From the IMG/VR virus record IMGVR_UViG_2529292919_000026: a stretch of DNA of 16,261 bases; one strand, given 5' to 3'. How positions within the stretch are numbered: the stretch's first letter is position 1; each line of letters starts with the position of its first letter. The position numbers were made by a program, and so were the translations under genes. This DNA comes from a virus (taxonomy: Duplodnaviria > Heunggongvirae > Uroviricota > Caudoviricetes). Shown here one piece after another: positions 1 to 16,261 of this stretch. The notes beneath the pieces are model-generated. The model did no database searches. It was not told the origin of the DNA and worked only from the letters and a program-made list of their open reading frames with translations.

Positions 1-306
1 ATGCTGCGTACTGGTATAGAGGGATGGACAGAAAATGACATTCTTCGCTACTGCCGTCTGTCTTCTGGTCGTAACTATGCAACAGAGTTAGAACGCCAGC
101 TTGGAATCACTCTGGAGCGTATCGACGAAAAGAATCCTGATGGTATCGGAACACACCTTCGCTACCGTTTCTCCTGCCGTGGTGATGTTCTGAAAGTGAT
201 CACTCATGTTAACCATCTTGCGAACATAAATGATCACAACGGACTTTCTCAGCAGGAAATTGCCGACATTCTGAAACTCTACCCGAACGCGTTTAACGCC
301 GCCTAA
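1..306 (+). CDS. hypothetical protein (101 aa)
   Basis: Uninterrupted ORF beginning at the first base of the window (ATG) and ending 12 nt before the next gene. No recognisable motif. The window also ends exactly on a stop codon, which suggests it was cut at gene boundaries and this CDS is complete. Confidence 0.45.
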   Translation: MLRTGIEGWTENDILRYCRLSSGRNYATELERQLGITLERIDEKNPDGIGTHLRYRFSCRGDVLKVITHVNHLANINDHNGLSQQEIADILKLYPNAFNAA

Positions 307-318
307 CGGAGACTGAAA

Positions 319-1152: not shown

Positions 1153-1324
1153 GCCAACAGGAACACCACAACCACAAAAACGCTACAAAGATGCCCACGG
1201 AGCACTCGTTACTGTCGAAAGCGTGTCTCACAACCGAGTGACGTTTTATCGCGACGGGTATCAATCGCCATGCGTACAACCGCTGGCGCGTTTCATGAAG
1301 GAGTTCGCGGAGGTTAACCAATGA
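1145..1324 (+). CDS. small hypothetical protein (59 aa)
   Basis: ATG at 1145 overlaps the stop codon of the antirepressor (ATGTCTAA), and the stop overlaps the next gene's start (ATGA at 1321-1324), typical translational coupling. The track's longer 1058 start lies inside the upstream gene. Confidence 0.45.
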   Translation: MSKPTGTPQPQKRYKDAHGALVTVESVSHNRVTFYRDGYQSPCVQPLARFMKEFAEVNQ

Positions 1325-2388
1325 TACCCGTCCAGAAGAAGACATTTTCACTGGCTGGTATGTCGCCAAAATCCAGCAATATGACGGCAAAGTCAGGCAT
1401 TAATACAGCAGATACAAGCAAAGTTTATCATTTGCTGGTGGTCGGAACGGATGCCTTAACCATACCAGAAATCTCGGGCGATGATATTAGCATTGAGAAG
1501 GTCAGCGGCTGCGCCAGAAAATTTCTGGTCGTAGATGATGTCTTCCGCTCGCGTAGTGACTCCACAAAAACCTTCATCCGCGCGCGTGACGTTAACGAAA
1601 TGAGCGCGATGTACTGTGCATCTGGTGCTTCCAATAGCGAGTTTTCGGAGTCCATAAAAAAGAGCTTGCCGTTATGCGGCAACACGGTTTATGGTTATAA
1701 GGCACCTCATAAAACGGGTGCCGGGATTGGCGTCCTGGTAAATCGAATGGCGACATATGACGCGCCGAGCGTCTTTTTTTATGTCGTAGGTCTGACTCAC
1801 CCATTTTTTGGGCGTTGGTGTATAATCCAGCGCCTTTGTCAATCAATGGTGGCTCAGGCAGGGGCTTCTTCGGAAGCGCCGGTATCCATTCGAGCCGGTT
1901 ACGCCAACCCTGTCTGGGCTACCACCAGCGAAATTGGCGTTTCCGGTGGTAGCGTTACATGCTATCGAATGGAGGCTGCCACATGCTGGCTACTACCCCT
2001 ACCCAAAAACCGCAATTTATCTGGATTATCGCCGCAGTTCGCCGCGATTGCCCGACAATTACCGCCAGAATTCATCATATTGCTGCCGAGTCTGAACGCG
2101 ATGCTCGCCGTTCTCTGGTGCGCGATCACGTCTGCTTTTTTGCTGGTCGTATCCGCATGGAGGTGGCACATGATTAAAACCTACGATGTGCATATGGATC
2201 CCCTCGAACGCACAAGCCAGATCATCACACTGACAGAAGTGATTAACGACATTCTGGTGAGCAACTCTCCCTCACGAGACGAAAGACTGAAGGCGTTACT
2301 CGCGATATTGGATCTCGCCGTTCGTGACGTTCATTTCCTGCTGGAAGGTGGCGAAATGCCAGTAAAAACGGGGGCAACCAATGAATAA
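1321..2388 (+). CDS. hypothetical protein (355 aa)
   Basis: 355 codons without a stop in ~50% GC DNA is unlikely by chance. Start is coupled to the preceding gene by ATGA overlap. No recognisable domain. Contains a strong internal GGAGG-N5-ATG at 2160-2172 (see findings). Confidence 0.5.
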
Positions 2389-2575
2389 CTCAATTAATAC
2401 CCCTCGCCTTACGTCCGCACTTCAATTAATCGAGCAAGCAGCGGCTGTCCTGGTTGCTGTCAGTCTTTCGGCTGAAGAAATGGACGCTACTGATGTCGTG
2501 GATGCGATTAAAGCGTGCTCATCTTTGGTTAACGATGCCCGTGCAGAGCTGGTAATTCTTGGGGGTGAAAAATGA
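2381..2575 (+). CDS. small hypothetical protein (64 aa)
   Basis: ATG overlaps the stop of the upstream gene (ATGAATAA), and its stop overlaps the next start (ATGA at 2572-2575). Confidence 0.55.
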   Translation: MNNSINTPRLTSALQLIEQAAAVLVAVSLSAEEMDATDVVDAIKACSSLVNDARAELVILGGEK

Positions 2576-2835
2576 ATATCAACTTAATTTATCGTCATCC
2601 GTGTGAGCTGGAAATTGAATCATTGCTGAGCCGTGAAGAACCATATCCAGACACATTCACTCTTGCAGATCGCACGACTGAACGGCTTACCAGAGCGCGC
2701 ACAGGTCTGGTTCATGTGATGAATGAGATTCTTCCATCGGTGGGAGGGGAACAGGCGACAGTAATCACTAGCTGGCTACAAAAAGTTACCTCTCTGATAG
2801 ATATCAGTTTAATCGATGCGGAGAGTGCGAAATGA
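2572..2835 (+). CDS. small hypothetical protein (87 aa)
   Basis: Translationally coupled on both sides by ATGA overlaps (2572-2575 and 2832-2835). Confidence 0.55.
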   Translation: MNINLIYRHPCELEIESLLSREEPYPDTFTLADRTTERLTRARTGLVHVMNEILPSVGGEQATVITSWLQKVTSLIDISLIDAESAK

Positions 2836-3053
2836 CCAACATCCAGCTCATTGAAGCGCAATGTCGCATCGAACAGGTTCAGACTGTTTTAGGGTTCTGG
2901 CTTGAAGGGGCCAGCCCCAGCAACAGAGACAAGTTAATGATTGGCGCGGTTATGTCACTGCTCAATGGCGTACCAGAAGCTATTCAGGAAGCAGACGAAT
3001 TGTTGGGCAAATATGAGTTACAGAATCATTCAGGCGAGGCGAAACATGAATAA
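2832..3053 (+). CDS. small hypothetical protein (73 aa)
   Basis: Coupled to neighbours. Stop overlaps the next start in ATGAATAA at 3047-3053. Confidence 0.55.
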   Translation: MTNIQLIEAQCRIEQVQTVLGFWLEGASPSNRDKLMIGAVMSLLNGVPEAIQEADELLGKYELQNHSGEAKHE

Positions 3054-3648
3054 TTTCTTAACTTTCCAGGCAGAAGCAACGCCTGACGGCGTAAACATCA
3101 TGCACCGCAGCAACGATGGCATGACAGAACGCGTTGAGACCGTCTCATATATTGATGCCGTAAATCGTCTGGATGCCGGGGATTATGACGATAAACCAGA
3201 TGAAGGTATGTCAATACATCTCGCTATTGCCGATGGCGGCAACCAGGGATATTTCGATTACACATCACAGCATAACGTCATTATGTGGAGATGGTTGATC
3301 GCAACAGTATTCATGCTGGAAATGAGAGAGGAAAACGGCACTGTCAGCATCATTGATGATACTGGCAATCCTTCCGAAGTGGCTGTTTATTCCAACGGCA
3401 TCGTCGCCATGCCGCTGTATCCAGTAGCAGAGCGCCTCGCTATGGCAAACAACATTGAGGGCGCGATGATAGAACGTTTTGGCATCGAGTCTGGCACAGA
3501 ACGCTCCATCATTTTCTACAGAGCCATGATGGATGTGGAACAAGGAGCACTGACTCCATTTGGTCGTGAAACGCTTGCTGAACTTCACAACAGCTTTATA
3601 GCTGAACTGAATGAAAACGGCATGCCATCGGAACCAGTGACGCACTGA
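3047..3648 (+). CDS. hypothetical protein (200 aa)
   Basis: ATG at 3047 overlaps the upstream stop. The track ORF extends to 2941, but that start lies inside the upstream gene, so the coupled ATG at 3047 is preferred. Acidic protein with no recognisable motif. Confidence 0.55.
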
Positions 3649-3658
3649 GGATGGAACC

Positions 3659-3742
3659 ATGATTACTAAAAATTTCCGACTGAATGCGCTGGCAAATAAG
3701 TATGCGTCAGCACTGTATAACCACATTACCTCCACCAGCGGC
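3659..3742 (+). pseudogene. N-terminal fragment (28 codons) of a small gene split by IS insertion
   Basis: GAGGA Shine-Dalgarno 7 nt upstream of ATG 3659. Reading frame MITKNFRLNALANKYASALYNHITSTSG runs into the IS left end. After removing the IS and one copy of the duplication the frame continues exactly into 5301-5558. Confidence 0.7.
3734..3742. repeat. left copy of 9-bp target-site duplication ACCAGCGGC
   Basis: Identical to 5292-5300. The last C is shared with the first base of the IS terminal repeat, so the junction is ambiguous by 1 nt. Confidence 0.75.
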
Positions 3743-3760
3743 TGTCTCTTATACACAAAT
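3742..3760 (+). repeat. IS left terminal inverted repeat (outside-end-like)
   Basis: CTGTCTCTTATACACAAAT, 17/19 match to Tn5 OE. Confidence 0.8.
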
Positions 3761-3906
3761 CCCCACCCGGGGATTTGTGATGTCTGTCAGTCTGCTTTAG
3801 GGGGACTCTTTCCATCCGGTAGTTTCCTTCCTCCCCGGCAGCGATTTTTTGAACTTTTTCCTCACCCGTTGATCTTCTCTTATATTTCATTTTCTTCGGG
3901 TCTGTT

Positions 3907-5280
3907 ATGGTACTTTCTGATTGTTATTCATGGGCTAACGAGCAGTTTGGACATGCCCGTCTCGGTGATCCGCGTCGTACACGACGCCTTGTGTCACTGG
4001 CCTCTTCTCTCGCTCAGCATGCAGGTCTTTCTATTGTGAAATCATCCCAGTCCACTGCTCAGGTTGAAGGTGCGTACCGCCTGATACGTAACCCGTCTGT
4101 GTCCCCGCAAGCCATTGCCGAAGCCGGATTTACCGCCACTGTAAGGGCATGTGAGGCTCATCCGCTGCTCCTCGCGCTGGAAGACACCACCACCATTAAC
4201 TTCAGTCACAGTACGGCATCTGATGACCTGGGGAATACCACCACTAACCCGAAGACGCGCGGGCTGCTGGCTCACTCTGTCCTGATGTACGCCCCCGACA
4301 GCGCCCTGCCAGTCGGTCTTATCGAACAGCAGCGCTGGAGTCGTGCCACGGACACCTACGGTGTTAAGCACCAGCGAAAAGAACGTCCCTATGAAGAAAA
4401 AGAAAGTTACCGCTGGCAGCAGGCTTCGGAGCGCATGGCCGAACGGCTGGGGGAGATACAGAAACGGGTAATCACTGTCTGTGACCGGGAAGCGGATATC
4501 TGGCATTACCTGCATTATAAAGTCAGCCACGGGCAGCGCTTCGTGGTGCGTGCAGCACAGAATCGCCGGCTGGAAGAAGCACCCGGCAAGCTCTTCGAAC
4601 TGCCGGAAGTCCTGGCAACCGCGGGAAGCCACACGCTGAATGTGATGCAAAAAGGCGGGCGGGCAGCCCGCCAGGCCCGGATGTTCATCAGTTACAGCGA
4701 AGTCAGCATAAAAAATCCCGACAACAGCGGCCAGGCGCTCCCGCTCACGTATGTCTGTTGCCGGGAGCAGGCAGAGGACGGCGCCTGCTGGCATCTGCTG
4801 ACGTCAGAAAAAGTGGCGAGTGCCGCCGATGCGCGACGTATCGTCAGCCATTACGAGCGACGCTGGCTGATAGAGGAATACCACAAGGCGTGGAAAAGTG
4901 GTGGTACATGTGTGGAATCGCTGCGAATGCAGACCCGGGATAACCTCGAGCGCATGGTGGTTATCAAGGCGTTTATCGCGGTGCGGGTGCTGGGCCTGCG
5001 GCAGGGCGGTATCAGTGAAGAAACACAAAATGACAGCTGTGAGAAAATACTGACGCCGACAGAGTGGAAACTGCTGTGGGTTAAGCTGGAAGGAAAACCG
5101 CTTCCGTCACAGATGCCGACACTGAAATGGGCCTGTCTGAAACTGGCGAAACTGGGGCGATGGCATGACAGCAAACGCACCGGTCGCCCCGGTTGGGTAG
5201 TCATGTGGGATGGCTGGTTCAGACTTCAGGATATGGTTGAGGGTTACCTGGTGATGAAGTCTCTTGATCAGGAGATCTGA
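3907..5280 (+). CDS. tnp: IS4-family DDE transposase, Tn5 Tnp-like (457 aa)
   Basis: Clear collinear similarity to Tn5 transposase: GDPRRT.RLV, EGAYR.IRNP.VS, L(A/L)(I/L)EDTT, VCDREADI, RFVVR, RW.IEE(F/Y)HKAWK(T/S)G and DNLERMV...A(V/I)R.L.LR blocks, including the catalytic D, D, E positions. Stop codon lies inside the right terminal repeat. Confidence 0.85.
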   Translation: MVLSDCYSWANEQFGHARLGDPRRTRRLVSLASSLAQHAGLSIVKSSQSTAQVEGAYRLIRNPSVSPQAIAEAGFTATVRACEAHPLLLALEDTTTINFSHSTASDDLGNTTTNPKTRGLLAHSVLMYAPDSALPVGLIEQQRWSRATDTYGVKHQRKERPYEEKESYRWQQASERMAERLGEIQKRVITVCDREADIWHYLHYKVSHGQRFVVRAAQNRRLEEAPGKLFELPEVLATAGSHTLNVMQKGGRAARQARMFISYSEVSIKNPDNSGQALPLTYVCCREQAEDGACWHLLTSEKVASAADARRIVSHYERRWLIEEYHKAWKSGGTCVESLRMQTRDNLERMVVIKAFIAVRVLGLRQGGISEETQNDSCEKILTPTEWKLLWVKLEGKPLPSQMPTLKWACLKLAKLGRWHDSKRTGRPGWVVMWDGWFRLQDMVEGYLVMKSLDQEI

Positions 5281-5291
5281 TCAAGAGACAG
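5273..5291 (-). repeat. IS right terminal inverted repeat (inside-end-type)
   Basis: Reverse complement is CTGTCTCTTGATCAGATCT, 19/19 with Tn5 IE. Confidence 0.85.
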
Positions 5292-5558
5292 ACCAGCGGC
5301 GGGGACTATTTCATGATTGATGCGGACGGAGAGGCCGTACGTGTGGAAATCGTCAATGGAGTAAAAGGCGTTCGCAGCCTGATCGATAGTTACGCACTGG
5401 CAGCCATGAAAGTGTTCTACCCGCAGTGGGAAACCGTGGGGATCGAGCTTCTTGATCGTTGCGTCACTAAGGACAGATTGACTGACGTCGGGCGTGAGAT
5501 ATGGCAAAGCATGGTTAATGACATGGGCGCAACTGTAGCGGGAGGTTCTCATGCGTGA
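5292..5558 (+). pseudogene. C-terminal fragment of the IS-split gene (the 5313-5558 track ORF is its in-frame tail)
   Basis: Starts with the right copy of the duplication ACCAGCGGC (encoding T-S-G, the same three residues that end the N-terminal fragment). Frame continues G-D-Y-F-MIDADGEAV... to TGA 5556-5558. Reconstructed intact protein would be about 113 aa. Confidence 0.7.
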
Positions 5559-5922
5559 AAATGCAGAAATGGCGCTTAGCTCCGCAATCGGAGAGCAGGT
5601 GGCAAAGATTGCTGGTGCTGTGTGGATTCATAACCTTCATTCTACTGGTGAAGAGAAAATGGCAATTCAGACGCCAGAGGGACGCACTATTACTACATCT
5701 CTGAAGCCGTCAGATGTTTGTGATCTGATTTGCGCATTCATGTACCCAGCAATGAGGACTGTCCACGGCGATAAGTGGAAACTTGCGACAACCGCTGAAT
5801 TTGATATGTGGCTAAACAATGATGGCATGCTGACTGATTACGGAATAACCAAGTGGCAGATGCTGGTTAGCCATATCGCAAACGCTATAGACCACGTGGG
5901 GTACGGTGATGCGAAACATTGA
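5551..5922 (+). CDS. hypothetical protein (123 aa)
   Basis: GGAGG at 5541-5545, five nt before ATG 5551. Start overlaps the stop of the split gene (ATGCGTGA). Its 3' end overlaps the primase start. Confidence 0.55.
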   Translation: MRENAEMALSSAIGEQVAKIAGAVWIHNLHSTGEEKMAIQTPEGRTITTSLKPSDVCDLICAFMYPAMRTVHGDKWKLATTAEFDMWLNNDGMLTDYGITKWQMLVSHIANAIDHVGYGDAKH

Positions 5923-8665
5923 TCTTATCCGTCAGGTTATCAGTGCGTCTGAAAACAACTGGCCTCATGTGCTGGGCTGCCTGAACATAAATGTCCCTGA
6001 CTCTCCGCGCCGTCATGCTCCCTGCCCTGCATGTGGGGGCAAAGATCGATTCCGGTTCGATGACAACGGGCGCGGTAGCTTCATCTGTAATCAGTGCGGC
6101 GCTGGTGATGGGCTGGATTTAATTAAACGCGTAAATAACTGCGACACAACAGAGGCGGCGCTGCTTGCCGCTGATGTTCTGGGTATTGATTACCGGACAA
6201 CGGAAACACCAGAAGCCACCAGCCAGAAACGGGAACAACTGGAAACCGAGCGCCAGCAACGCGAACAGGAGCGCCTGAAAAGGGCGGAGAAGGACGAACA
6301 ACAAAGACGGGATACGTTTTCCCGTCAGTTTGATGACATGCGCAGAAAGGCTGTAAACGGCAAATCTGATTATCTGGTTGCGAAAGGGGTAGGTGATTTT
6401 ACATTCCCCGTGTTGCCCGATGGATCTCTGTTGCTGGCGCTGGTGGATAAATCCGGCGCAGTCACAGCAGCACAGACTATTACCTCACATGGTGAAAAAA
6501 GACTCCTGACAGGTTCAGCAAAGCGGGGGGCATATCACGCCATAAACGCACCAGAAACAACACAGAGCATCTTAATCGCAGAAGGGCTGGCAACGGCATT
6601 ATCTGCCCATTTAATTCGTCCAGAGGCGCTGACAGTGGCGGCGATTGATGCCGGGAACCTGTTATATGTCGCCCAGGTACTGCGGGATAAATTTCCTTCA
6701 GCACAAATCATCATTGCTGCGGATAACGACCACAGCGAAGGAAGACAAAACACGGGGAGAATAGCAGCAGAAAAAGCAGCTTTATCTGTTTCTGGATGGG
6801 TGGCATTACCCCCGACAGGTCACAAAGCAGACTGGAATGATTACCACCAAAAACACGGCATTAAATGCGCCACAGAAGCGTTCAATAAGTCAATGTACCA
6901 ACCACAGGGTAATGGCGTGAAACAGGAGCCACAGACCATTGAGGGAAGCGATTTTAAGGTTATGGATACCGACCCACTGAAACCAAGAATAGAAAGCCGC
7001 GAGGATGGTATTTATTGGGTATCTCCGAGAGCTGACAGCCAGAGTGGAGAAATCATCAATAACGAAAGCTGGTTATGTTCTCCGTTAAGCGTTATCGGTA
7101 CTGGCAGAGACGATAAAGACCAGTATCTCATTCTTCGCTGGCTGTCGTTTGGTTCTGAAACGCCGACAACCGCTGCCATTCCACTGGCTGATATTGGTGA
7201 ACGTGAAGGATGGCGCACACTTAAAGCTGGTGGGGTAAATGTCACGACCAAAAGCAGCCTCAGAGCAATACTGGCAGACTGGCTACAACGCAGTGGCTCT
7301 CGTGAATTGTGGCGTGTTGCTCATGCCACTGGCTGGCAATGCGGAGCGTACATCATGCCTGATGGGGAAATCATCGGAACACCTGAAAATCCTGTGCTGT
7401 TCAGCGGGAGAAGCTCAGCCGCAGCCGGATATACCGTCTCAGGGAGCGCGCAAAGCTGGCGTGATAACGTGGCGCGTCTGGCCTTTGGTAACTATTCAAT
7501 GATGACCGGGATCGGCGCAGCACTGGCAGCACCATTGATTGGGCTGGTGGGCGCTGACGGGTTCGGCATTCATTTCTATGAGCAGTCGAGCGCAGGTAAG
7601 ACCACCACGGCAAACGTGGCGAGCAGCTTATACGGCAACCCTGATTTACTGCGGCTGACGTGGTACGGAACCGCGCTGGGGCTGGCAAATGAGGCCGCCG
7701 CCCACAATGACGGACTAATGCCGCTTGATGAAGTTGGTCAGGGCGCTGATCCTGTCAGCGTTTCACAGTCTGCCTATGCGTTATTTAACGGTGTAGGGAA
7801 ACTGCAAGGCGCTAAAGATGGTGGAAACCGGGATCTAAAACGCTGGCGTACAGTGGCAATCAGCACCGGAGAAATGGATTTAGAAACATTTATCGCTACT
7901 TCCGGGCGAAAAACCAAAGCCGGGCAACTGGTGCGACTGCTGAATATTCCGTTGAGTAAAGCAGTACGCTTTCACGATTACCAGAACGGAAAACAGCACG
8001 CAGACGCACTGAAAGACGCTTACCAGCATCACCATGGCGCAGCCGGGCGTGAGTGGATTAAATGGCTGGCAGACCACCAGCAACAGGCTATTAAAACTGT
8101 TCGTGATTGCGAAAGCAGATGGAGAAGCCTGATCCCACCCGATTATGGTGAGCAGGTTCACCGTGTAGCCGCGCGATTTGCCATTCTGGAGGCCGCATTG
8201 TTGTTAGGCGAGGTTGTAACAGGCTGGGATGCTCAGACATGCCGTGATGCGATACAGCACAGCTATAACGCATGGTTGCGCGAGTTCGGCACAGGTAACA
8301 AAGAGCATCAGCAGATTATTGAACAAACGGAGGCATTTCTTAATGCCTATGGGCTTAGCCGTTTTGCACCATTTCCATACAGCCCGGCAGATTTGCCCAT
8401 CAAAGATTTAGCCGGATACCGTCAGCGTGGAGAACATGACGAAAGCCCAATGATTTTCTACACATTCCCGGCCACATTTGAAAAGGAGATCGCATGTGGT
8501 TTCAACGCAAAACAGTTTGCTGAAGTGTTGAAAAAAGCCGGGATGCTAACCCCACCAAACAGCGGTCGTGGATACCAAAGAAAATCACCACGTATTCAGG
8601 GACGACAAATAAACGTTTATGTACTCAATTACCAGCCAGGAGATTATAACTCATCTGAAGAATGA
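5909..8665 (+). CDS. primase, zinc-ribbon + Toprim + DUF927/P4-alpha-like NTP-binding domain (about 918 aa)
   Basis: N-terminal CPACGGKDRFRF...FICNQCG zinc ribbon; Toprim-like acidic motifs (ILIAEGLATA, IIIAADNDHSEG); P-loop-like EQSSAGKTT near residue 555. Immediately followed by an iteron array. ATG at 5909 is preferred over the GTG at 5906 reported by the track. Confidence 0.8.
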   Translation: MRNIDLIRQVISASENNWPHVLGCLNINVPDSPRRHAPCPACGGKDRFRFDDNGRGSFICNQCGAGDGLDLIKRVNNCDTTEAALLAADVLGIDYRTTETPEATSQKREQLETERQQREQERLKRAEKDEQQRRDTFSRQFDDMRRKAVNGKSDYLVAKGVGDFTFPVLPDGSLLLALVDKSGAVTAAQTITSHGEKRLLTGSAKRGAYHAINAPETTQSILIAEGLATALSAHLIRPEALTVAAIDAGNLLYVAQVLRDKFPSAQIIIAADNDHSEGRQNTGRIAAEKAALSVSGWVALPPTGHKADWNDYHQKHGIKCATEAFNKSMYQPQGNGVKQEPQTIEGSDFKVMDTDPLKPRIESREDGIYWVSPRADSQSGEIINNESWLCSPLSVIGTGRDDKDQYLILRWLSFGSETPTTAAIPLADIGEREGWRTLKAGGVNVTTKSSLRAILADWLQRSGSRELWRVAHATGWQCGAYIMPDGEIIGTPENPVLFSGRSSAAAGYTVSGSAQSWRDNVARLAFGNYSMMTGIGAALAAPLIGLVGADGFGIHFYEQSSAGKTTTANVASSLYGNPDLLRLTWYGTALGLANEAAAHNDGLMPLDEVGQGADPVSVSQSAYALFNGVGKLQGAKDGGNRDLKRWRTVAISTGEMDLETFIATSGRKTKAGQLVRLLNIPLSKAVRFHDYQNGKQHADALKDAYQHHHGAAGREWIKWLADHQQQAIKTVRDCESRWRSLIPPDYGEQVHRVAARFAILEAALLLGEVVTGWDAQTCRDAIQHSYNAWLREFGTGNKEHQQIIEQTEAFLNAYGLSRFAPFPYSPADLPIKDLAGYRQRGEHDESPMIFYTFPATFEKEIACGFNAKQFAEVLKKAGMLTPPNSGRGYQRKSPRIQGRQINVYVLNYQPGDYNSSEE

Positions 8666-8684
8666 GCTTCTTCATGTGCGTAGA

Positions 8685-8730
8685 AAAGGTGTTGGTTCAG
8701 TTGGTTCAGTTGGTTCAATTTGTAAAGAGT
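8685..8730 (+). repeat. 46-bp segment perfectly inverted-repeated at 15899-15944
   Basis: AAAAGGTGTTGGTTCAGTTGGTTCAGTTGGTTCAATTTGTAAAGAG is the exact reverse complement of 15899-15944. Confidence 0.9.
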
Positions 8731-8802
8731 ATTGTTTTATAAGGATTTTATTCTTTTTATTGAACCAACACTGAACCAACAACACGGTATTTTGAACCAA
8801 CA
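8692..8802. promoter_or_regulatory. iteron array, candidate replication origin (copy A)
   Basis: Three tandem GTTGGTTCA 9-mers (8692-8718), an AT-rich ~43-bp spacer, then three spaced inverted copies TGAACCAAC (8762-8770, 8773-8781, 8794-8802). Sits directly 3' of the primase gene. Confidence 0.65.
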
Positions 8803-8862
8803 CAATGTGACTGAATTGATGCGCACAACACCTGGCTGGCATCAGAGAGTGTTTTACGAGAC

Positions 8863-8883
8863 TTTCGTAAAATCCTGTGTACA
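8863..8883. promoter_or_regulatory. palindromic operator-like site TTTTACGA-N5-TCGTAAAA
   Basis: 8-bp perfect inverted arms seen directly in sequence. Confidence 0.4.
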
Positions 8884-8905
8884 AGGGCGTGACGTTTTTG
8901 AAAGT

Positions 8906-8922
8906 GAGCACTACGAAATTTT
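8906..8922. promoter_or_regulatory. palindromic operator-like site CTACGAAA-T-TTTCGTAG
   Basis: 17-bp near-perfect palindrome sharing the TTTCGTA half-site with the site 25 bp upstream. Confidence 0.4.
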
Positions 8923-9122
8923 CGTAGTTCAAAAAACAGCCTCTGAGAAGTTGTTATGCCTGTTCAGCAAACCATCCGCATAGCTGATCGCGAATCAAAT
9001 TACCAATGGAGCCAGAATCAAGGGCAGAACTGAAAAGCGCCTGCCGTGAAGAGTAATGCGATACCATAAATATAGTTTTTAGAGTCCATAAAAAACCTGT
9101 CAAAACCTGACACACAGAACGA

Positions 9123-9154
9123 TGCCACCAGCTACTGAGCGGTGGCATTTTTTT
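9123..9154 (+). terminator. rho-independent terminator (orphan, no upstream + strand CDS)
   Basis: Stem TGCCACC/GGTGGCA with 11-nt loop, followed by seven T residues (9148-9154). Confidence 0.55.
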
Positions 9155-9249
9155 GTGCTATTTGTTTCATATTTTGCAATTACGATGATGAATATTGCGA
9201 TTTGTGAAACTATAATAACTGTTGTTTTATACAGTTCTAAGGGGGCGTT

Positions 9250-9411
9250 ATGGCTATTTCAGTAAATCCGGTATTGATAAGTGAGAAGCAAATGGAAGCG
9301 ATAAAGAAAATTCAGGAAGAGCAGCGTAAAAAATCAGGAATTGGAGTAGCGCCAACTCTGCATGAAATTGCACGAGGGTTAATAGATAAGGCGCTGGCAG
9401 GCTGTATGTGA
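9250..9411 (+). CDS. small hypothetical protein (53 aa), below the track's length cut-off
   Basis: AAGGGGG Shine-Dalgarno 6 nt upstream of ATG 9250; TATAAT hexamer at 9211-9216. Sequence MAISVNPVLISEKQMEAIKKIQEEQRKKSGIGVAPTLHEIARGLIDKALAGCM, possibly a small DNA-binding protein. Confidence 0.45.
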   Translation: MAISVNPVLISEKQMEAIKKIQEEQRKKSGIGVAPTLHEIARGLIDKALAGCM

Positions 9412-9427
9412 AAATGGATGGCATCGC

Positions 9428-9889
9428 ATGGAACTAAAATTTATTGATAACCCTGTGCGATTACAGGCCTTTCTTAACGAGCCAGGCAATACCGAAAATA
9501 TTGTTGAGCCGGGGCACACGTACTACATCAAGCCTGATGCGGTATATCTCGGCATCTACGAAGGATTAGTGCTGGCTGGCGTTCATGAAGTGCGTAACTT
9601 CTGGCATAGCGTTGTTGAATGCCATGCGGTGTACGACCCCGGATTCCGTGGTGAATATGCACTGCAAGGGCATCGATTATTCTGCAAATGGCTTCTCGAA
9701 AACTCACCATTCCTTAACAGCATCACCATGGTTCCTGACACCACCAAATACGGACGGGCAATTATCCGTTTGCTTGGCGCTACCCGTGTTGGTCACCTTG
9801 ATGATGCTTATATCAGATGTGGTAAACCCGTCGGCGTAACGCTTTATCAGTTAACTCGGCAACAATATAAGGAATTCAGCGAATGTTAA
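9428..9889 (+). CDS. protein at the gene-14 position of a P22-like ejection-protein cluster (153 aa)
   Basis: Assigned by position and size only: it directly precedes three coupled ejection-protein-like genes, and its stop overlaps the next start. Confidence 0.35.
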   Translation: MELKFIDNPVRLQAFLNEPGNTENIVEPGHTYYIKPDAVYLGIYEGLVLAGVHEVRNFWHSVVECHAVYDPGFRGEYALQGHRLFCKWLLENSPFLNSITMVPDTTKYGRAIIRLLGATRVGHLDDAYIRCGKPVGVTLYQLTRQQYKEFSEC

Positions 9890-10560
9890 TTACCCATATA
9901 GCTCATAAACATCTCAATCGTGCCGTATACGAAAAAGGCGGTGATGGTGGTGCCTCTAAAGCTCAGGCGAAGGCCCAGCAGCAGGCAATTGATTTGCAGC
10001 GCGAGCAGTGGAATACGGTGATGAATAATCTCAAGCCGTATGCAGAAGTCGGATTGCCTGCTTTACAACAACTGCAAGGACTGATGACTCTGGAAGGGCA
10101 GAATAAAGCCGCGAATGATTTCTTTGGTTCTGGTTTATATAAAACACAGGCAGATCAGGCCCGTTATCAGAACCTTGTCTCAGCAGAAGCTACCGGGGGG
10201 CTTGGCTCAACAGCTACCAGTAACCAGTTATCTTCCATTGCGCCCATGCTTTATAACAATTGGCTCAGTGGGCAAATGCAAAATTATGGAAACCTGCTAA
10301 ATGTCGGGATGAATGCGGCATCAGGGCAGGCAACGGCAGGGCAAAACTACGCCAATAATACCGGACAACTCTTGCAGGGGCTTGGCGCTATTCGTGCAGG
10401 TCAGGCGCAGCAGCCATCCAGTCTTGCGCGTGGTATTGGTGGGGCAGCATCAGGCGCTTTAGCGGGTGCGCAACTTGGTTCCGTTGTTCCTGGAATAGGA
10501 ACTGCGGCCGGCGCTATTGGTGGTGGGCTTATTGGTCTTGTTGGGGGGCTTGGATTCTAA
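9883..10560 (+). CDS. P22 gp7-like DNA ejection (internal virion) protein (225 aa)
   Basis: Size close to P22 gp7 (about 229 aa from memory); EKGGDGG segment near the N terminus; Gln/Ala/Gly-rich low-complexity body; glycine-zipper hydrophobic C terminus GGLIGLVGGLGF. First of three coupled genes in P22 order. Confidence 0.55.
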   Translation: MLITHIAHKHLNRAVYEKGGDGGASKAQAKAQQQAIDLQREQWNTVMNNLKPYAEVGLPALQQLQGLMTLEGQNKAANDFFGSGLYKTQADQARYQNLVSAEATGGLGSTATSNQLSSIAPMLYNNWLSGQMQNYGNLLNVGMNAASGQATAGQNYANNTGQLLQGLGAIRAGQAQQPSSLARGIGGAASGALAGAQLGSVVPGIGTAAGAIGGGLIGLVGGLGF

Positions 10561-11981
10561 TGGCGACATGGCAACTTGGCGGGCTGCCTAGCATGGCACC
10601 GCAAAATGATAATGCTCCTCGTTCTTCCGTTCCTCAGCCTGTGCAGTATCAGCAGCAGCCAAACGTAGGTTTAATGGCGCTACAGGGGCTAAGAGGCGTT
10701 GCTGAGATTAATCAGCAGGCACGTCAACAACAGCGTAAATCAGAGTTTCAGAAAGCATATGCCGGGGCTTTTGAGTCTGGAGACAGAAACAAAATGCGCA
10801 GTCTTATTTCTGAGTATCCAGAAGAATTTGAAAGCGTTCAGAAAGGGATGGGCTTTATTGATGACGACCAGAGAAATTCTATTGGTCATCTTGCGACTAG
10901 TGCTCAAATCGCATCTTCGCTCGGAACTGGGGCATTTGGAAAATTCATAGCAGATAACGAAGATGAAATGCGTCGCTTGGGAATTTCTCCTGAGTCTGTT
11001 GCCGAAATGCATGTTAATGATCCACAGGGATTCCAGCGGCTTGCTGGTAGTATGGCACTGTTTTCTCTCGGTCATGAGAAGTATTTCGATATCAAAGATC
11101 AAATGGAAGGTCGGGATATTGAGCGAGGCAGGCTGGCAGAGACAATCCGCAGCAATCAGGCTGGCGAAGCACTTCAGGCGAGAGGGCAGGATATTAGCCG
11201 AGCAAATGCGTTAACGTCAGCATATGCACCAACAGCAGCAATGCAGAATTACAATCAGTACGCTCAAATGTTAAAGGCGGATCCAGAGGGGGCGGCGGCA
11301 TTTGCGGCAGCGGCTGGAATTAATACAAACGCCAAAAAATTAATGAGTGTTAGAGAAAACGATGATGGCACTGTCACAAAATACTACACAGACGGAAGTG
11401 AAGAGCAGGGAAAACTAAACCAGCCAATATCTGGAGATGGGTTTCGTCCAATAGCTTTGCCAACAGCCCAAAAGATCATGGAAAAGTCGCCAGAAGGGGC
11501 TAAAAAAGCTGCTGGATTTGCATACAGGGTTAGGGATGCTCTTGATTCAATAGATACACTGAAAGACCAGCTTAGCCCACAGCGAGTGGCGATCATTAAT
11601 AATGCTTTGGGTAATGGGACGCTGGCTAACTTAACGCTCAGCCCAACAGAGCAGCAATACGTTGTTAATGCTAATGACGCAATAATGGCAATACTCCGTC
11701 AGGAAACAGGGGCAGCTATCGTACCTGCTGAAATGTCAAAATATTATCAAATGTATTTCCCTCAGCCTGGCGACTCCACAAAAACCATTGATACCAAGCG
11801 CCGGAAGATGGAAAACCAGTTCAATTCGCTGAAAGCTGCTTCTGGTCGAGCTTATGATGCTTTGCGGGTTATTTCAGCAGTTGACAGAGGAACGTCTTCT
11901 TCGTCGCAGACATTGCCGCAATCTGAGCAGGTATCACAGCCAGCAGCCAGCAGTAACTTTTCTTCACTATGGGGTGATTAA
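10560..11981 (+). CDS. P22 gp20-like DNA ejection protein (473 aa)
   Basis: Size close to P22 gp20 (about 471 aa from memory). Start overlaps the upstream stop (TAATGG) and the stop overlaps the next start. Confidence 0.55.
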   Translation: MATWQLGGLPSMAPQNDNAPRSSVPQPVQYQQQPNVGLMALQGLRGVAEINQQARQQQRKSEFQKAYAGAFESGDRNKMRSLISEYPEEFESVQKGMGFIDDDQRNSIGHLATSAQIASSLGTGAFGKFIADNEDEMRRLGISPESVAEMHVNDPQGFQRLAGSMALFSLGHEKYFDIKDQMEGRDIERGRLAETIRSNQAGEALQARGQDISRANALTSAYAPTAAMQNYNQYAQMLKADPEGAAAFAAAAGINTNAKKLMSVRENDDGTVTKYYTDGSEEQGKLNQPISGDGFRPIALPTAQKIMEKSPEGAKKAAGFAYRVRDALDSIDTLKDQLSPQRVAIINNALGNGTLANLTLSPTEQQYVVNANDAIMAILRQETGAAIVPAEMSKYYQMYFPQPGDSTKTIDTKRRKMENQFNSLKAASGRAYDALRVISAVDRGTSSSSQTLPQSEQVSQPAASSNFSSLWGD

Positions 11982-14086
11982 TGGCTAAAGCATGGAAAGA
12001 TGTTATCGCCTCTCCACAGTATCAGGCGTTAGCACCAGAACAAAAAGCGCAGGCTCAGGAGCAATACTTCAATGAAGTCGTTGCCCCGCAAGCCGGAGAA
12101 AGTGTAGAGCAGGCTAAGCAGGCTTTTTATGCTGCCTATCCACTACCATCAACGAATGAAATAGACCGATCCCAATCAGCAACTCAAAATATTCAACATA
12201 CATCATCTGATAATTCTCTTGCGTCAGGGTATGCAAAGTTAGCTACTCAGCAAAGAGAGGGGCTTGAGCGTTCAGCAGAACAGGGAGCCAGTCTTGGGGC
12301 TGCGATGCGCGATGCTATAACAGGCGAAAGCCGAATGACTTCAGAGATGGAGAGACTGCAAAATGTCGCCTCTGCCCCAGAATTGAACTCACTAAGCATG
12401 GATGCCCTAAAGGCTGGATGGTCCCAACTTTTCGGCTCTGACGCGTCTCAGGAAAAGATTCTTCAGGGAATGGGGGCGACATTAAGGCAGGATGAGAAGG
12501 GGAATACTATCGTTTCTCTGCCATCAGGTGATTATGCCCTGAACAAGCCGGGTTTATCACCGCAAGACCTGACTTCGTTTCTTGCTAATGCGTTGGCGTT
12601 TACACCAGCGGGCAGGGCTGGAACGGTGCTTGGTGCCATAGGAAAATCAGCAGCTACAGATTTAGCACTACAGGGAGCCACCAGCCTTGCTGGTGGAGAA
12701 GATATTGATCCGTTACAAACGGTAATTTCTGCTGGCATTGGTGGTATTGGTAAGGGGCTGGAAAATACAGCGAGTGCGGTTTCGAGGGCTGTTCGTGGTG
12801 ATATGTCGCCTGAAGCAAAGGCTGCTGTCGACTTTGCATCGGAAAGAAATCTGCCGTTAATGACCAGTGACATGCTGAAAGATAAAACCTTTATGCAGAG
12901 TCAGGCTCAGACATTAGGCGAAAGAGTTCCTTTTTTTGGAACCGGTAAGAATCGGCTGAATCAACAACAAGCACGAGAAAATTTAGTCAGAACATTTAGC
13001 GATGGTCTGGGTGGCATTTCTGATAAACAGCTTTATGAATCTGCGACTAAAGGGCAACAAAAATTCATTGAGGCAGCAGGAAAGCGATATAACCGCATAA
13101 TTGACGCTATGGGGGATACCCCTGTCGATCTCTCAAACACGGTAAAAGCTATCGACAATCAGATTGCCGTGTTAAGCCGCCCGGGCAAATCTCAGGATAG
13201 AGCCGCGGTAAAAGTCTTGCAGCAATTTAAAGACGATATCACCAGCGGACCAAATGACCTGCGCCTGGCGAGGGAAAACAGAACCGATCTTCGAAAGCGA
13301 TTTATTGCGTCATCTGACACTGTTGATAAAGATACGCTCCAGAAAGCCAGCGATATTATCTACAAGGCATATACGGCGGATATGAAAAAAGCCGTAGCCA
13401 AAAATCTTGGAGCAGACGAAGCCATTAATATGGCAAGGGTTGATCGCTCATGGTCTAAATTCAATGACATGATGGGAAGAACGCGCGTTCAAAAGGCAAT
13501 AGCCAGCGGCAAGGCCACGCCTGAGGATGTAACAAAACTCGTTTTTAGCCAAAGCCCATCAGAACGTTCTCAGCTTTACAGGCTTCTGGATGACAATGGT
13601 AGGCAAAACGCACGAGCAGCCATAGTTCAGAATGCTGTAGATAAGGCGACTGATCCGTCTGGAAATATCAGTGTTGAGAAGTTTATTAATGCGTTACACC
13701 GGAACAGGAAGCAATCAGCAACTTTCTTTAAAGGCGTACATGGGAAGGAACTGGACGGCGTTATTAAATACCTCAACGATACAAGACACGCGGCAAAAGC
13801 GAACGTTCAAAACTTAAATGGTCAGCAGCTTTATGGATTGTTAGTTGGTGGTGGCATCATAAACGCAGCAGTATTAGCGGGGATGCTAAAAACGGCTGCG
13901 TTTGTTGTTCCTGCTGCTGGTGCCGTAGGCGGAGCAGCGAAGGCATACGAAACCCCTGTTATACGAAATGCCTTGTTACGTCTGGCAAATACGCCAAAAG
14001 GTAGCACAGCATATGACAGAGCGATCAGTACGGTCACACAATCGCTCACCAGAGTCGCACAGGCATCACAAAAAGAAGCTCAATAA
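11981..14086 (+). CDS. P22 gp16-like DNA ejection protein (701 aa)
   Basis: Third coupled gene; large Ala/Gln-rich protein with hydrophobic Gly/Ala-rich segment near the C terminus (GGGIINAAVLAGMLKTAAFVVPAAGAVGGAA). Longer than P22 gp16 (about 609 aa from memory). Confidence 0.5.
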   Translation: MAKAWKDVIASPQYQALAPEQKAQAQEQYFNEVVAPQAGESVEQAKQAFYAAYPLPSTNEIDRSQSATQNIQHTSSDNSLASGYAKLATQQREGLERSAEQGASLGAAMRDAITGESRMTSEMERLQNVASAPELNSLSMDALKAGWSQLFGSDASQEKILQGMGATLRQDEKGNTIVSLPSGDYALNKPGLSPQDLTSFLANALAFTPAGRAGTVLGAIGKSAATDLALQGATSLAGGEDIDPLQTVISAGIGGIGKGLENTASAVSRAVRGDMSPEAKAAVDFASERNLPLMTSDMLKDKTFMQSQAQTLGERVPFFGTGKNRLNQQQARENLVRTFSDGLGGISDKQLYESATKGQQKFIEAAGKRYNRIIDAMGDTPVDLSNTVKAIDNQIAVLSRPGKSQDRAAVKVLQQFKDDITSGPNDLRLARENRTDLRKRFIASSDTVDKDTLQKASDIIYKAYTADMKKAVAKNLGADEAINMARVDRSWSKFNDMMGRTRVQKAIASGKATPEDVTKLVFSQSPSERSQLYRLLDDNGRQNARAAIVQNAVDKATDPSGNISVEKFINALHRNRKQSATFFKGVHGKELDGVIKYLNDTRHAAKANVQNLNGQQLYGLLVGGGIINAAVLAGMLKTAAFVVPAAGAVGGAAKAYETPVIRNALLRLANTPKGSTAYDRAISTVTQSLTRVAQASQKEAQ

Positions 14087-14090
14087 CTGG

Positions 14091-14113
14091 TTAGCCATGG
14101 ATGGCTAATTTTT
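14091..14113 (+). terminator. intrinsic terminator between convergent genes
   Basis: Perfect inverted repeat TTAGCCAT-GG-ATGGCTAA followed by TTTTT. The stop codon of the minus-strand membrane-protein gene lies inside the stem. Confidence 0.55.
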
Positions 14114-14524
14114 GTTCTTTGCTCTCATCCATAGGTAAAGAAGGGAAAGAACAAGACAAAAAACAGAGAATAGATAACCTACCTCATATGGTGCGCCAAA
14201 AAAATTAGCCATTGATACGGGCAAAAAAGCTGAAGCGATCAAAATTGAAAGGCAAAAAATAAGCCCAGTAATATAGTTTATTAAATTCTTAAATGAGAAA
14301 CGTTTTGCTTGATTTACGGTCTTAACGAACGATCGCTTAACGACGGATAAAAGCAAATAGATGGCGACAGTTGCTAATGCCCCTTTCCACCAGTCTGGAT
14401 ATAGTTTTGCGACAATCAGACCAAGGAAAACCATGATGACAGCCTGAGCATTCACACCAACCCTCCCTTTAGCTTTGTTTAGAATGGCAATCATCATATA
14501 TCCAAGACATGGCATTTGGTACAT
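14105..14524 (-). CDS. small multi-pass inner-membrane protein at the sieA position (superinfection-exclusion-like)
   Basis: Several hydrophobic helices (VIMVFLGLIVAKL, ALATVAIYLLLSVV, ITGLIFCLSILIASAFL, LFSVFCLVLSLLYLW). Convergent with and immediately after the gp16-like gene, as sieA is in P22-like phages. Start uncertain: a strong AAAGGGAGGG sits 5 nt before an in-frame GTG at 14455. Confidence 0.5.
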   Translation of the reverse strand: MYQMPCLGYMMIAILNKAKGRVGVNAQAVIMVFLGLIVAKLYPDWWKGALATVAIYLLLSVVKRSFVKTVNQAKRFSFKNLINYITGLIFCLSILIASAFLPVSMANFFGAPYEVGYLFSVFCLVLSLLYLWMRAKNKN

Positions 14525-14564
14525 AGCTTGGGTCGGGATTTCAAATCCGATCCCCGTTGATGGG

Positions 14565-14960
14565 GCCGTTACAGTACGCGCATATCCTCTTTATGTGAAA
14601 CAGGAAGATTTTTCTGATATCACTGCCACAGCAAAACACCAATTTCGTGACCAGTACGCGCGCGAGGGGTATCAGTTGCAAAAAATTTTGCAACTGCGTC
14701 CGACCAGTACGCACACGATGGCGGGGAGCACCATAAAACTGTTCTCTACATAAGACAGAGTGGTGGTGATGTGTTGATTATCGGCGTATATGCGCACAGG
14801 ACGCGCTATGACGATGTTTTATGCGGGTACACCAATCACATGTATCTGGTGTGATCAATCGCGTTACATGACATCTCATGTTGTGCTGGTGATTATCACG
14901 ACGTTCTGAATCTGGCCTTTGCCTGATATTTTGCGACAAGTACGCGCGCGTAGCATCGAC
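14565..14960. repeat. cluster of short repeats: AGTACGCGCGCG-type motifs with adjacent TTTTGCGAC-type motifs
   Basis: AGTACGC(G/A)C(G/A)CG at 14572, 14653, 14705 and 14939; TTTTGC(G/A)AC at 14405, 14686 and 14929; perfect 12-bp palindrome TACGCGCGCGTA at 14941-14952. Confidence 0.6.
14673..14696. promoter_or_regulatory. palindromic operator-like site CAGTTGCAAAA-AA-TTTTGCAACTG
   Basis: 11-bp perfect inverted arms seen directly in sequence, in the noncoding region upstream of the minus-strand membrane-protein gene. Confidence 0.45.
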
Positions 14961-14978
14961 AGCATACACATTGGATAT

Positions 14979-15179
14979 TCATTTTGTGACCAATGCGATA
15001 AGTAGCGGGATAAGAATTGATAAAATCAACAGGACGATGATCCACTTTTGATTCTCGTCCATCTTATCTGCTAGGCGACGCTCCATTCCGTGCATATCAC
15101 CGCGAATGGCAATCATCTCATTGCGAACATCCGAGAAGTGGTTGGCTTGATGTTCAATGTGTGGCGTTCTGCCTTTCAT
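14979..15179 (-). CDS. small protein with C-terminal transmembrane helix (66 aa)
   Basis: GGTGAGGA Shine-Dalgarno 7 nt upstream of ATG on the minus strand. C-terminal WIIVLLILSILIPLLIALV hydrophobic segment. Confidence 0.5.
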   Translation of the reverse strand: MKGRTPHIEHQANHFSDVRNEMIAIRGDMHGMERRLADKMDENQKWIIVLLILSILIPLLIALVTK

Positions 15180-15258: not shown

Positions 15259-15714
15259 TTATACGCTGACCTTACAATCAATCACCGCTTTTAACTTTTC
15301 AGCATTGCTTCCCTGACGCTTCCACGCGCTGTAAATATCTTTATCCCACGCTTTACCAGCTTTTGTTTGATAGCCTGCTTCATTGATCCGTTCAGCTATC
15401 ACACGCCCATTATCAAATCCCTGTTGGATGGTATCGGCAATGATCTTTATAACTGCCGTTTCGTTATATGGTTTTGGTGGGATGTTCGGCTTTCCGGCAA
15501 TAAGCGACGCAGCGGCTTTTTCCATGCGCTCCACCAGCCCAAGCATTCGTGAATCAATAGACTTTTCCGGCTGCCCCAGCTTCATGCGAATCGCATCAAC
15601 AAGCCAAGAGGTTTTATCTCCTCCAGAAGCGAGAACAGACCGATTAAACTCATCCTGCAATTCAGATGGGATGCGGAACGCGATCAGATTAGATTTGCTC
15701 ATTGCAAAGACCAT
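15259..15714 (-). CDS. ribbon-helix-helix (Arc/Mnt/CopG-type) DNA-binding regulator with C-terminal extension
   Basis: N-terminal SNLIAFRIPSELQDEFNRSVLASGGDKTSWLVDAIRMKL fits the beta-strand/helix/helix pattern of RHH repressors (compare the FNLRWP strand of P22 Arc/Mnt). True start may be the second ATG (15702). Confidence 0.5.
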   Translation of the reverse strand: MVFAMSKSNLIAFRIPSELQDEFNRSVLASGGDKTSWLVDAIRMKLGQPEKSIDSRMLGLVERMEKAAASLIAGKPNIPPKPYNETAVIKIIADTIQQGFDNGRVIAERINEAGYQTKAGKAWDKDIYSAWKRQGSNAEKLKAVIDCKVSV

Positions 15715-15816
15715 ATCAGTGAGTAATATCCATACAGTATACCACTGTATAACACTGTTATACGCTCAAATATCAGCCAGAAAATAACAGACCAATCACA
15801 AATCTATCGCTGTGTT

Positions 15817-15937
15817 GTTGGTTCAGAGCTGGGCTGTGTTGGTTCAAAATGAGTTGATGTTGGTTCAATATTTTAGAAAAAACACAATAAAAACAACGCT
15901 CTTTACAAATTGAACCAACTGAACCAACTGAACCAAC
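15817..15937. promoter_or_regulatory. iteron array, candidate replication origin (copy B, inverted relative to copy A)
   Basis: Three spaced GTTGGTTCA 9-mers (15817-15825, 15838-15846, 15859-15867), an AT-rich spacer, then three tandem TGAACCAAC (15911-15937). Confidence 0.6.
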
Positions 15938-15944
15938 ACCTTTT
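15899..15944 (-). repeat. second copy of the 46-bp perfect inverted repeat
   Basis: Exact reverse complement of 8685-8730. Confidence 0.9.
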
Positions 15945-15973
15945 TGCTTATCTATATAATCTGAGAGGCAGAA

Positions 15974-16261
15974 ATGATAAAGGACAGGAAAGCTGAAGAG
16001 CTGGAGTCAAAAGGGCTATACCGGAGAGCTGCCGCACGATGGGCAGAAGTCATGATGCTGGCAGATGGCGATAAAGAACGTGAACATGCAGCAAACAGAC
16101 GCTCTGAATGTATCCGTAAGGCGGCACGCCCACCAGCAACTACAGACAGATTCGGAGATTTAAGACAGGCAGTTAAGCGGACTCATTCGGCTCTTGGTAT
16201 GGATGAGGAAGCGAGAGGGTACTTCAGGCGTTATCGCGATAAAGATTGCCAGAGACAGTAA
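15974..16261 (+). CDS. PerC-like small transcriptional regulator (95 aa)
   Basis: N-terminal KAEELESKGLYRRAAARWAEVM resembles the conserved N-terminal signature I recall for PerC/Pch-family activators found on prophages and P4-like islands. GAGAGG Shine-Dalgarno and TATAAT at 15955-15960 upstream. Recalled from memory, not searched. Confidence 0.45.
   Translation: MIKDRKAEELESKGLYRRAAARWAEVMMLADGDKEREHAANRRSECIRKAARPPATTDRFGDLRQAVKRTHSALGMDEEARGYFRRYRDKDCQRQ

Follow-up and report, generated by a model that had tools for sequence, protein, structure and literature searches.

Imm of phage T4 and gp15 of phage HK97 are small inner-membrane proteins that keep the DNA of related phages from entering the cell; T4 produces Imm during infection, and gp15 is made by the resident prophage, in which its gene is a moron among virion genes. 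In the P22 group, SieA is a multi-pass inner-membrane exclusion protein that acts against the gp20/gp16 DNA-delivery conduit; it exists as types A, B and C (Pfam PF26849), which have the motif FxRYPxEAxxFNK in common, and the escape mutations map to gp16 and gp20 (PMC10883804). EcCIMP1 is a phage-inducible chromosomal island (PICI) mobilised by the P22-like phage Kapi1; it makes Kapi1 lysogens more immune to superinfection, through a mechanism that was not identified, and no known defence system was found in it (PMC11773190). Here we analyse a minus-strand open reading frame (ORF, 14524–14105) of the IMG/VR record IMGVR_UViG_2529292919_000026, a Caudoviricetes sequence of 16,261 nucleotides, the whole of which is called the window below. 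An initial annotation, made from the sequence without database searches, had described the ORF as a membrane protein gene in the sieA position with an alternative GTG start, and hence as a candidate DNA-entry exclusion factor. Our comparisons make its product a candidate for a new, non-homologous class of sieA-slot protein.

Comparison places the start of the ORF at a GTG codon

Read from its first ATG, the ORF would encode 139 aa. Its codon 24 is an in-frame GTG (14455–14453), and a Shine-Dalgarno (SD) sequence, AAAGGGAGGG (14461–14470, minus strand), is separated from this codon by the 5-nt spacer TTGGT. The duplex of this sequence with the 3' end of 16S rRNA (anti-SD duplex) was calculated at −11.8 kcal/mol, the lowest value on the minus strand of the window, where only 0.46% of the positions reach −9 kcal/mol or less. 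For the four ATG codons further upstream (14524, 14515, 14497 and 14494) the values ranged from +0.4 to −3.1 kcal/mol, and these starts are indeed devoid of ribosome-binding sites, as had been stated in the initial annotation.

Looking at related loci, we found the same arrangement of SD and start in 10 independent loci and in 19 loci from IMG/VR, the start-equivalent codon being GTG or ATG behind the SD in 29 related loci. In a four-locus alignment the similarity begins abruptly at GGAGG-TTGNN-GTG and all sequence further upstream is unrelated; GGAGG and the spacer are kept in the Yersinia, Edwardsiella and E. coli loci. DNA conservation and protein conservation of the family both start at GTG 14455, and neither the upstream ATGs nor the extension that they would add (14456–14524) are conserved in any other locus compared. 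When the in-frame starts of six loci were listed, no candidate other than GTG 14455 was shared by all of them; upstream of the equivalent position the Yersinia locus lacks start codons altogether. The four most distant homologs (36–38% identity) align their own residue 1 to position 1 of the family profile; their start codon is ATG in their DNA, again with an SD in front. Residues 2–7 of the 116-aa form (N-x-Q-x-[VI]) are conserved at the protein level and must therefore be translated. The downstream ATG at 14434 (M31) was rejected as a start: it is ATA in locus L005, is missing in the distant homologs and has no SD (anti-SD duplex −2.5 kcal/mol).

Pairwise dN/dS over the 116 codons ranged from 0.13 to 0.47, with dS up to 1.3, which indicates purifying selection, and the ORF is intact in 227 of the 229 complete E. 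coli genomes that carry it. Taken together, the conservation of start and SD, the translated residues 2–7 and the dN/dS values show that the gene is real and that its product has 116 aa. On these comparative grounds GTG 14455 is solidly supported as the true start, and the revised coding sequence runs on the minus strand from 14455 to 14105, with a TAG stop at 14107–14105. The GTG start and the 116-aa product with its SD 5 nt upstream had been proposed in the initial annotation; existing annotations conflict with each other, since RefSeq starts the window-identical allele of strain 755 at M11 (129 aa) and the copy in APEC O1 at M31 (109 aa), and the lengths given for database relatives include 109, 116, 129, 130 and 151 aa.

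Homologs of the ORF occupy the sieA slot

The ORF is convergent to a gene-16-type ejection protein gene (11981–14086, plus strand; 701 aa; phrog_770 'DNA transfer protein', E = 2e-161), next to which lies a gene-20-type ejection protein gene (10560–11981, plus strand; 473 aa; Pfam PF16928 Inj_translocase, E = 3e-58). A gap of 18 nt separates the ORF from gene 16, stop codon to stop codon. All 27 full-length homologs outside the window are likewise convergent to a gene-16 homolog, 18–30 nt past its stop, and occur nowhere else (the L009 stretch is too short to show its gene-16 context). For sieA the distance to gene 16 is 22 nt in P22 and 21 nt for the type-B gene of E. coli HS (HS1), both genes being convergent as well. 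In intact P22-like prophages (L005–L008 of E. coli, L020 of APEC O1 and L003 of Yersinia) the genes run in the order portal, scaffold, coat, gp4, gp10, needle, gp14, gp7, gp20, gp16 and the ORF homolog, and the mnt/arc/ant and tailspike genes come after it where the fetched stretch reaches that far (L008 and L020). In these prophages the homologs thus lie where sieA does, between genes 16 and 9 and convergent to 16. This confirmed that ORF homologs occupy the sieA slot of intact P22-like prophages, the location assigned at the outset; in the window only the gene-16 side of the slot applies, because the island that carries the ORF has no tailspike gene.

The homologs have the orientation of mnt in L008 and L020, and the ORF has that of a gene for a 151-aa ribbon-helix-helix (RHH) protein (15259–15714, minus strand), residues 13–49 of which resemble the RHH domain of P22 Mnt (pairwise E = 0.001). 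With this Mnt-like N-terminus, the order gene 16, slot gene, small ORF and RHH protein mirrors that of 16, sieA, orf59a and mnt in P22. The small ORF encodes a 66-aa protein (14979–15179, minus strand) with a single C-terminal hydrophobic helix and a match to phrog_6324 (unknown function, E = 3e-15); compared with P22 Orf59a it showed no similarity.

The gp16 proteins linked to the ORF form one clade and are 60–99.6% identical to that of the window. The latter is 30% identical to P22 gp16, and the linked clade likewise reaches only 30% with the gp16 of the sieA carriers P22 and HS1. In the gap between gene 16 and the ORF a terminator scan detected a terminator-like hairpin (14089–14110, plus strand), whose 9-bp stem fills these 18 nt and whose T-run is complementary to the last codons of the ORF (KNKN). 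Other loci retain the stem; in L017 both of its sides have changed (AGCCA/TGGCT to TGCCA/TGGCA). This hairpin is probably the terminator of the ejection-gene operon, and it may constrain the C-terminus of the ORF product.

The product is a predicted four-helix membrane protein of a small family

A word-indexed search of 5.8 billion proteins returned only 22 relatives, from E. coli, Salmonella, Edwardsiella and Yersinia, and a profile search of 1.84 billion representative proteins added only the four distant homologs mentioned above; a scan of IMG/VR contributed 19 more loci. The ORF was found in 229 of 5,426 complete E. coli genomes (about 4%), some 146 of which have an island-type context downstream of it. 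The ORF thus belongs to a small, unnamed enterobacterial protein family. Scans against Pfam, PHROGs, NCBIfam and PADLOC gave nothing significant. The Pfam and PADLOC results say nothing about SieA, since P22 SieA itself is unmatched in the local copies; the searchable Pfam copy is without PF26849 (SieA) and PF26808 (P22 gp16), both of which appear in precomputed annotations, and its null results are uninformative for these families because P22 SieA and the 701-aa gp16 go unmatched there too. Searches with tblastn against 50,697 phage genomes (no match at E ≤ 10) and with the family profile against the sequences of the PDB were also negative.

Hydropathy analysis revealed four hydrophobic stretches arranged as two hairpins, the first stretch beginning at the N-terminus of the 116-aa form. 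The layout is helix 1, a KLYPDWW turn and helix 2, then a 12-residue loop with four Lys/Arg, and finally helix 3, a GAPYE turn, helix 4 and a basic tail; the C-terminus, LWMRAKNKN, extends only a few residues past helix 4. An AlphaFold2 model built from nine sequences places helices at residues 4–18, 22–46, 55–85 and 90–115; because its confidence is modest (pLDDT 64.5), we used it for helix positions only. Hydropathy and the model thus agree with the initial description of a multi-pass membrane protein that opens directly with its first transmembrane (TM) helix. The positive-inside rule predicts a cytoplasmic location for both termini and the central loop, and a periplasmic one for the KLYP(D)WW and GAPYE turns.

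Fifteen positions are invariant even when the distant members are included (L11, V15, K17, L18, Y19, P20, L27, F53, Y61, G64, L65, F67, P79, L108 and R111). Most of them fall in helices 1 and 3 and in the first turn, which is conserved in the family as KLYP(D)WW, and the cytoplasmic loop varies across the family in both length and sequence. When the AlphaFold2 model was compared by Foldseek with BFVD and the PDB, only generic four-helix membrane bundles were returned, at E > 1. The top viral matches are holins (E 1.4–1.8, probability about 0.1); a holin was rejected, as there are no lysis genes nearby or in the island.

Comparison of the ORF product with SieA

The ORF product and SieA share the slot, with convergent orientation about 20 nt past gene 16, the linkage to gp16 and gp20, which are the genetic targets of SieA, and the predicted character of a small multi-pass protein of the inner membrane. 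An integral inner-membrane protein with 3–4 TM helices, as expected of SieA, is what hydropathy, the positive-inside rule and AlphaFold2 predict for the ORF product. With type-B SieA the ORF product further shares a layout in which a basic loop lies between two hairpins.

In sequence the two proteins differ. BLASTP of the ORF product against P22 SieA gave an insignificant E of 0.77, and hhalign of the ORF family against 20 SieA sequences, all of types A and B, gave a probability of 0.14% and an E of 0.41. The FxRYPxEAxxFNK motif, invariant in the 20-sequence SieA alignment (F145, R147, Y148, P149, E151, A152, F155, N156 and K157), is absent from the ORF product, and so are the cytoplasmic loop of 48–58 residues and the cytoplasmic tail of SieA. 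SieA proteins have 164–226 aa, compared with 116 aa for the ORF product, and the conserved residues of the latter lie, unlike those of SieA, in the membrane or in periplasmic turns. No SieA appeared among the Foldseek matches in the viral structure library. By these comparisons the ORF product is outside the SieA family; a lack of similarity to SieA-family proteins is one half of what the initial annotation had named as refuting its proposal.

The gene lies in an EcCIMP1-like satellite island

An allele identical to that of the window sits in an 18-kb island between yicC and dinD of strain 755. The island carries genes for an integrase, an AlpA-type regulator, an AntA/B antirepressor, Ash, an Icd-like protein and a DUF927 primase-helicase, and further for gp14, gp7, gp20, gp16, the ORF product, the 66-aa membrane protein, the RHH protein and PerC. 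As read from the annotation of this identical island, the gene order is that of a PICI, and genes for capsid, tail and lysis are absent. The window is an EcCIMP1-like satellite island: its backbone is 88–99% identical in DNA to EcCIMP1 (antirepressor, ash, icd-like, DUF927 primase, gp14, gp7 and PerC), and in both islands the ejection-protein genes lie downstream of the primase. It differs from EcCIMP1 in integrase and attachment site (yicC-dinD, compared with tRNA-Thr in EcCIMP1), and EcCIMP1 has another gp20/gp16 pair (gp16 of 906 aa), a same-strand 232-aa lipoprotein gene in the slot and no copy of the ORF. Helper-induced excision and transfer have been reported for EcCIMP1 only (PMC11773190).

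BLASTN comparison with the EcCIMP1 satellite of E. coli MP1 revealed a mosaic. Identity is 95.6% over window positions 1–3742, 98.8% over 5292–10720, 95.8% over 14530–14959 and 88% over 15816–16057, and the stretch 10721–14529 has no match. Instead, positions 10695–14476, which cover gene 16, the ORF, its SD and the greater part of gene 20, are 93% identical to the P22-like prophage L005. Other P22-like prophages match the window up to 14462–14485, and homology to EcCIMP1 resumes at 14530. It follows from this mosaic that the segment 10695–14476 was transferred in one piece to a backbone of the EcCIMP1 type, and BLASTN identity shows that it came from a P22-like prophage. The ORF is therefore part of a transferable cassette, in keeping with the initial description of a gene carried by a cassette. 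The four upstream ATGs lie in the joint itself (about 14477–14529), which makes up most of the in-frame upstream extension; the 139-aa reading frame is an accident of recombination.

Three other features of the backbone were observed. The gap in the EcCIMP1 match at 3743–5291 is a 1.55-kb insertion sequence with a Tn5/IS4-type transposase (3907–5280), absent from EcCIMP1 and from strain 755; in EcCIMP1 coordinates its flanks share 9 bp, as would be expected from a 9-bp target duplication. Rfam matches above the gathering score were obtained for isrK (67 bits) and C4 antisense RNA (79.5 bits) at 1702–1779 and 1842–1929 on the plus strand, in or beside the gene of the ash family and upstream of the icd-like gene, in a layout that resembles the c4-icd-ant immunity region of P1/P7. 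Finally, the 430 nt from 14530 to 14959, without a convincing ORF, are conserved backbone that matches an unannotated stretch of EcCIMP1 (L019 12099–12530); Rfam found nothing there, and it is possible that they hold a promoter or a small RNA.

Other occupants of the slot

P22-type ejection genes lie downstream of the primase in the window (9428–14476), in EcCIMP1 (L019 12632–18649) and in the island of strain Ec1120 (L040 11963–15823); these satellites carry full-length ejection proteins although they have no capsid or tail genes. The block of gp20, gp16 and slot gene exists in at least three versions, which differ in the length of gp16 and in its neighbour: gp16 has 906 aa beside a lipoprotein gene, 701 aa beside the four-helix ORF and 705 aa beside the gene of a 118-aa variant.

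This last version was found in the Ec1120 island, whose 705-aa gp16 is of another type and is followed by the convergent gene of the 118-aa protein, 19–20 nt past its stop (L039 4001–4357, which is L040 12002–12358). The SD and start of this gene are identical to those of the window (AAAGGGAGGGTTGGT-GTG), and PGAP again gives it an upstream start (131 aa). Over its first 42 residues the protein shows homology to the ORF family (hhalign 97.7%). The sequence of the second half is unrelated, but two hydrophobic helices are again present there. This suggests a modular slot protein with a mosaic joint inside the gene.

In EcCIMP1 the gene directly after gp16 (L019 12632–13330, minus strand) encodes a predicted 232-aa lipoprotein (MIKNLLLILSLSLLAGC..., with an LLAGC lipobox). 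Because envelope lipoproteins are a known class of exclusion factors, this protein is a candidate for the superinfection immunity of EcCIMP1. Escherichia phage N7, whose gp16 is 67% identical to that of the window, has no ORF homolog and carries in the slot an unrelated single-pass membrane protein, ORF14 (L018 5902–6222, minus strand). N7 ORF14 resembles the ORF in slot, orientation, strong SD and membrane anchor; it differs in having 106 aa, with a single N-terminal TM helix and an 84-aa soluble domain, and is unrelated in sequence to the ORF and to SieA. These alternative slot genes indicate that the site next to gene 16 is a recurrent home of small envelope proteins that are exchanged together with gp20/gp16.

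A possible role in exclusion and alternative explanations

We tentatively propose, at a little less than even confidence, that the ORF product acts in superinfection exclusion at DNA entry, as a functional analog of SieA and not as its homolog; the proposal is drawn from position and topology only. In line with it are the transfer of the ORF together with gp20 and gp16, to which SieA escape mutations map, the other envelope proteins seen in this slot, and the superinfection immunity that the related satellite EcCIMP1 confers. The ORF would probably be expressed by the resident prophage or satellite, read in the direction of the mnt-like repressor gene, and its product would probably sit in the inner membrane, like SieA, and there block the assembly or opening of an incoming P22-like gp20/gp16 conduit, so that DNA entry would be stopped. 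Since only parts that face the membrane or the periplasm are conserved, contact with the conduit would be made within the inner membrane or at its outer face, and the contact surface may differ from that of SieA. T4 Imm and HK97 gp15 are not known to be related to the ORF product in sequence; they belong to other phage groups and have fewer predicted helices.

Several observations weigh against this proposal. Sequence similarity to SieA, its motif and its cytoplasmic regions are all missing, and the confidence of the structural model is modest. The immunity phenotype of EcCIMP1 cannot be credited to the ORF, because EcCIMP1 does not have it. No convincing sigma-70 promoter was found upstream of the ORF on its strand: a standard scan gave none, and a relaxed one gave only GTACCA-18-TATGAT (14522–14493), which is too weak to use and would put the transcript start downstream of all upstream ATGs. 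When the ORF was compared with the hydrophobic segment of gp16 in which P22 escape sites lie (G532 and P546), no clean co-variation was seen; two variants of this segment both accompany ORF homologs, and the ORF-less phage N7 has one of them. The linkage to gene 16 could be pure genetic hitch-hiking.

The alternative that survives best, though we judge it somewhat unlikely, is that the ORF encodes a membrane moron of the resident element with a role apart from phage DNA entry, for instance in host envelope physiology, as a small membrane regulator, or in a toxin or immunity function, and that the gene-16 joint is merely a tolerated insertion point. That the slot is filled by unrelated genes in different elements is in line with this, as is the further cargo (ClpP-like, DUF805, YafO toxin and others) of the region between gene 16 and the tailspike gene, and no similarity of the ORF product to a defence model or a known exclusion protein was found. 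A tolerated insertion point accounts poorly, however, for a full-length family held 18–30 nt from gene 16 in 27 loci besides the window, and for a partial relative (L039) that holds the same position beside another type of gp16. Moreover, SieA, the only characterised occupant of the position, is a multi-pass inner-membrane exclusion protein with a similar hairpin topology (PMC10883804).

A second alternative, which we regard as improbable, is that the ORF product is a true but highly diverged SieA homolog stripped of its cytoplasmic loop and tail. Apart from the slot, the orientation and a type-B-like layout of two hairpins around a basic loop, it has in its favour that BLASTP and hhalign pick the same juxtamembrane stretch, ORF residues 51–68 and P22 SieA residues 67–87, in which S54 and G64 of the ORF product are paired with the invariant S70 and G83 of SieA (G64 is invariant in the ORF family and S54 nearly so). 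This match is not statistically supported, however, as both scores are insignificant, and the sole motif common to the three SieA types is absent, as is SieA from the viral Foldseek matches.

There is similarly little chance that the product serves the element's own ejection proteins as an accessory factor, for example by protecting the membrane of the producing cell from gp16/gp20 or by helping in their handling, instead of acting against incoming phages. Strict linkage to gp20-gp16 and co-transfer with them would be expected of such a factor. The ORF is, however, transcribed opposite to the late ejection operon with the terminator-like hairpin between, so that co-expression with gp16 is not built in, and phage N7 does without the ORF although its gp16 is 67% identical; in the same vein, P22 lacking sieA grows normally. 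Lastly, a chance ORF or annotation artefact, to which the lack of a matching family model and the conflicting annotated starts might point, is scarcely credible, being already contradicted by the purifying selection, by the length, start and SD kept in homologs down to 36% identity, and by the intact ORF in nearly all carrier E. coli genomes.

Coming back to exclusion at DNA entry, a broader version can be formulated: gp20-gp16 and the adjacent envelope gene would form an exchangeable 'delivery and exclusion' cassette of P22-like phages and EcCIMP1-like satellites, whose occupants would each block the matched conduit. The proposed occupants are SieA types A to C, the four-helix family with its conserved first and replaceable second hairpin, the single-pass protein of N7 and the lipoprotein of EcCIMP1. 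We consider this generalisation distinctly unlikely as it stands.

Implications

For annotation, the outcome is that a gene carried by about 4% of the complete E. coli genomes has been given at least three different wrong or inconsistent starts, and that comparison fixes its start at the GTG. For the P22-like phages, SieA has been the sole characterised occupant of the slot, and only a third of the sequenced members have sieA; a second, unrelated membrane family locked to the same slot is a concrete candidate for how other phages exclude their relatives. Being essentially membrane helices alone, the 116-aa protein would be a minimal probe of the entry of the gp20/gp16 conduit into the inner membrane. 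There is also a link to satellites, as EcCIMP1, a close relative of the island, shows superinfection immunity. If the cassette as formulated above were true, satellites would re-equip helper virions with their own ejection proteins and shut out superinfecting helpers, and the superinfection immunity of EcCIMP1 would be explained.

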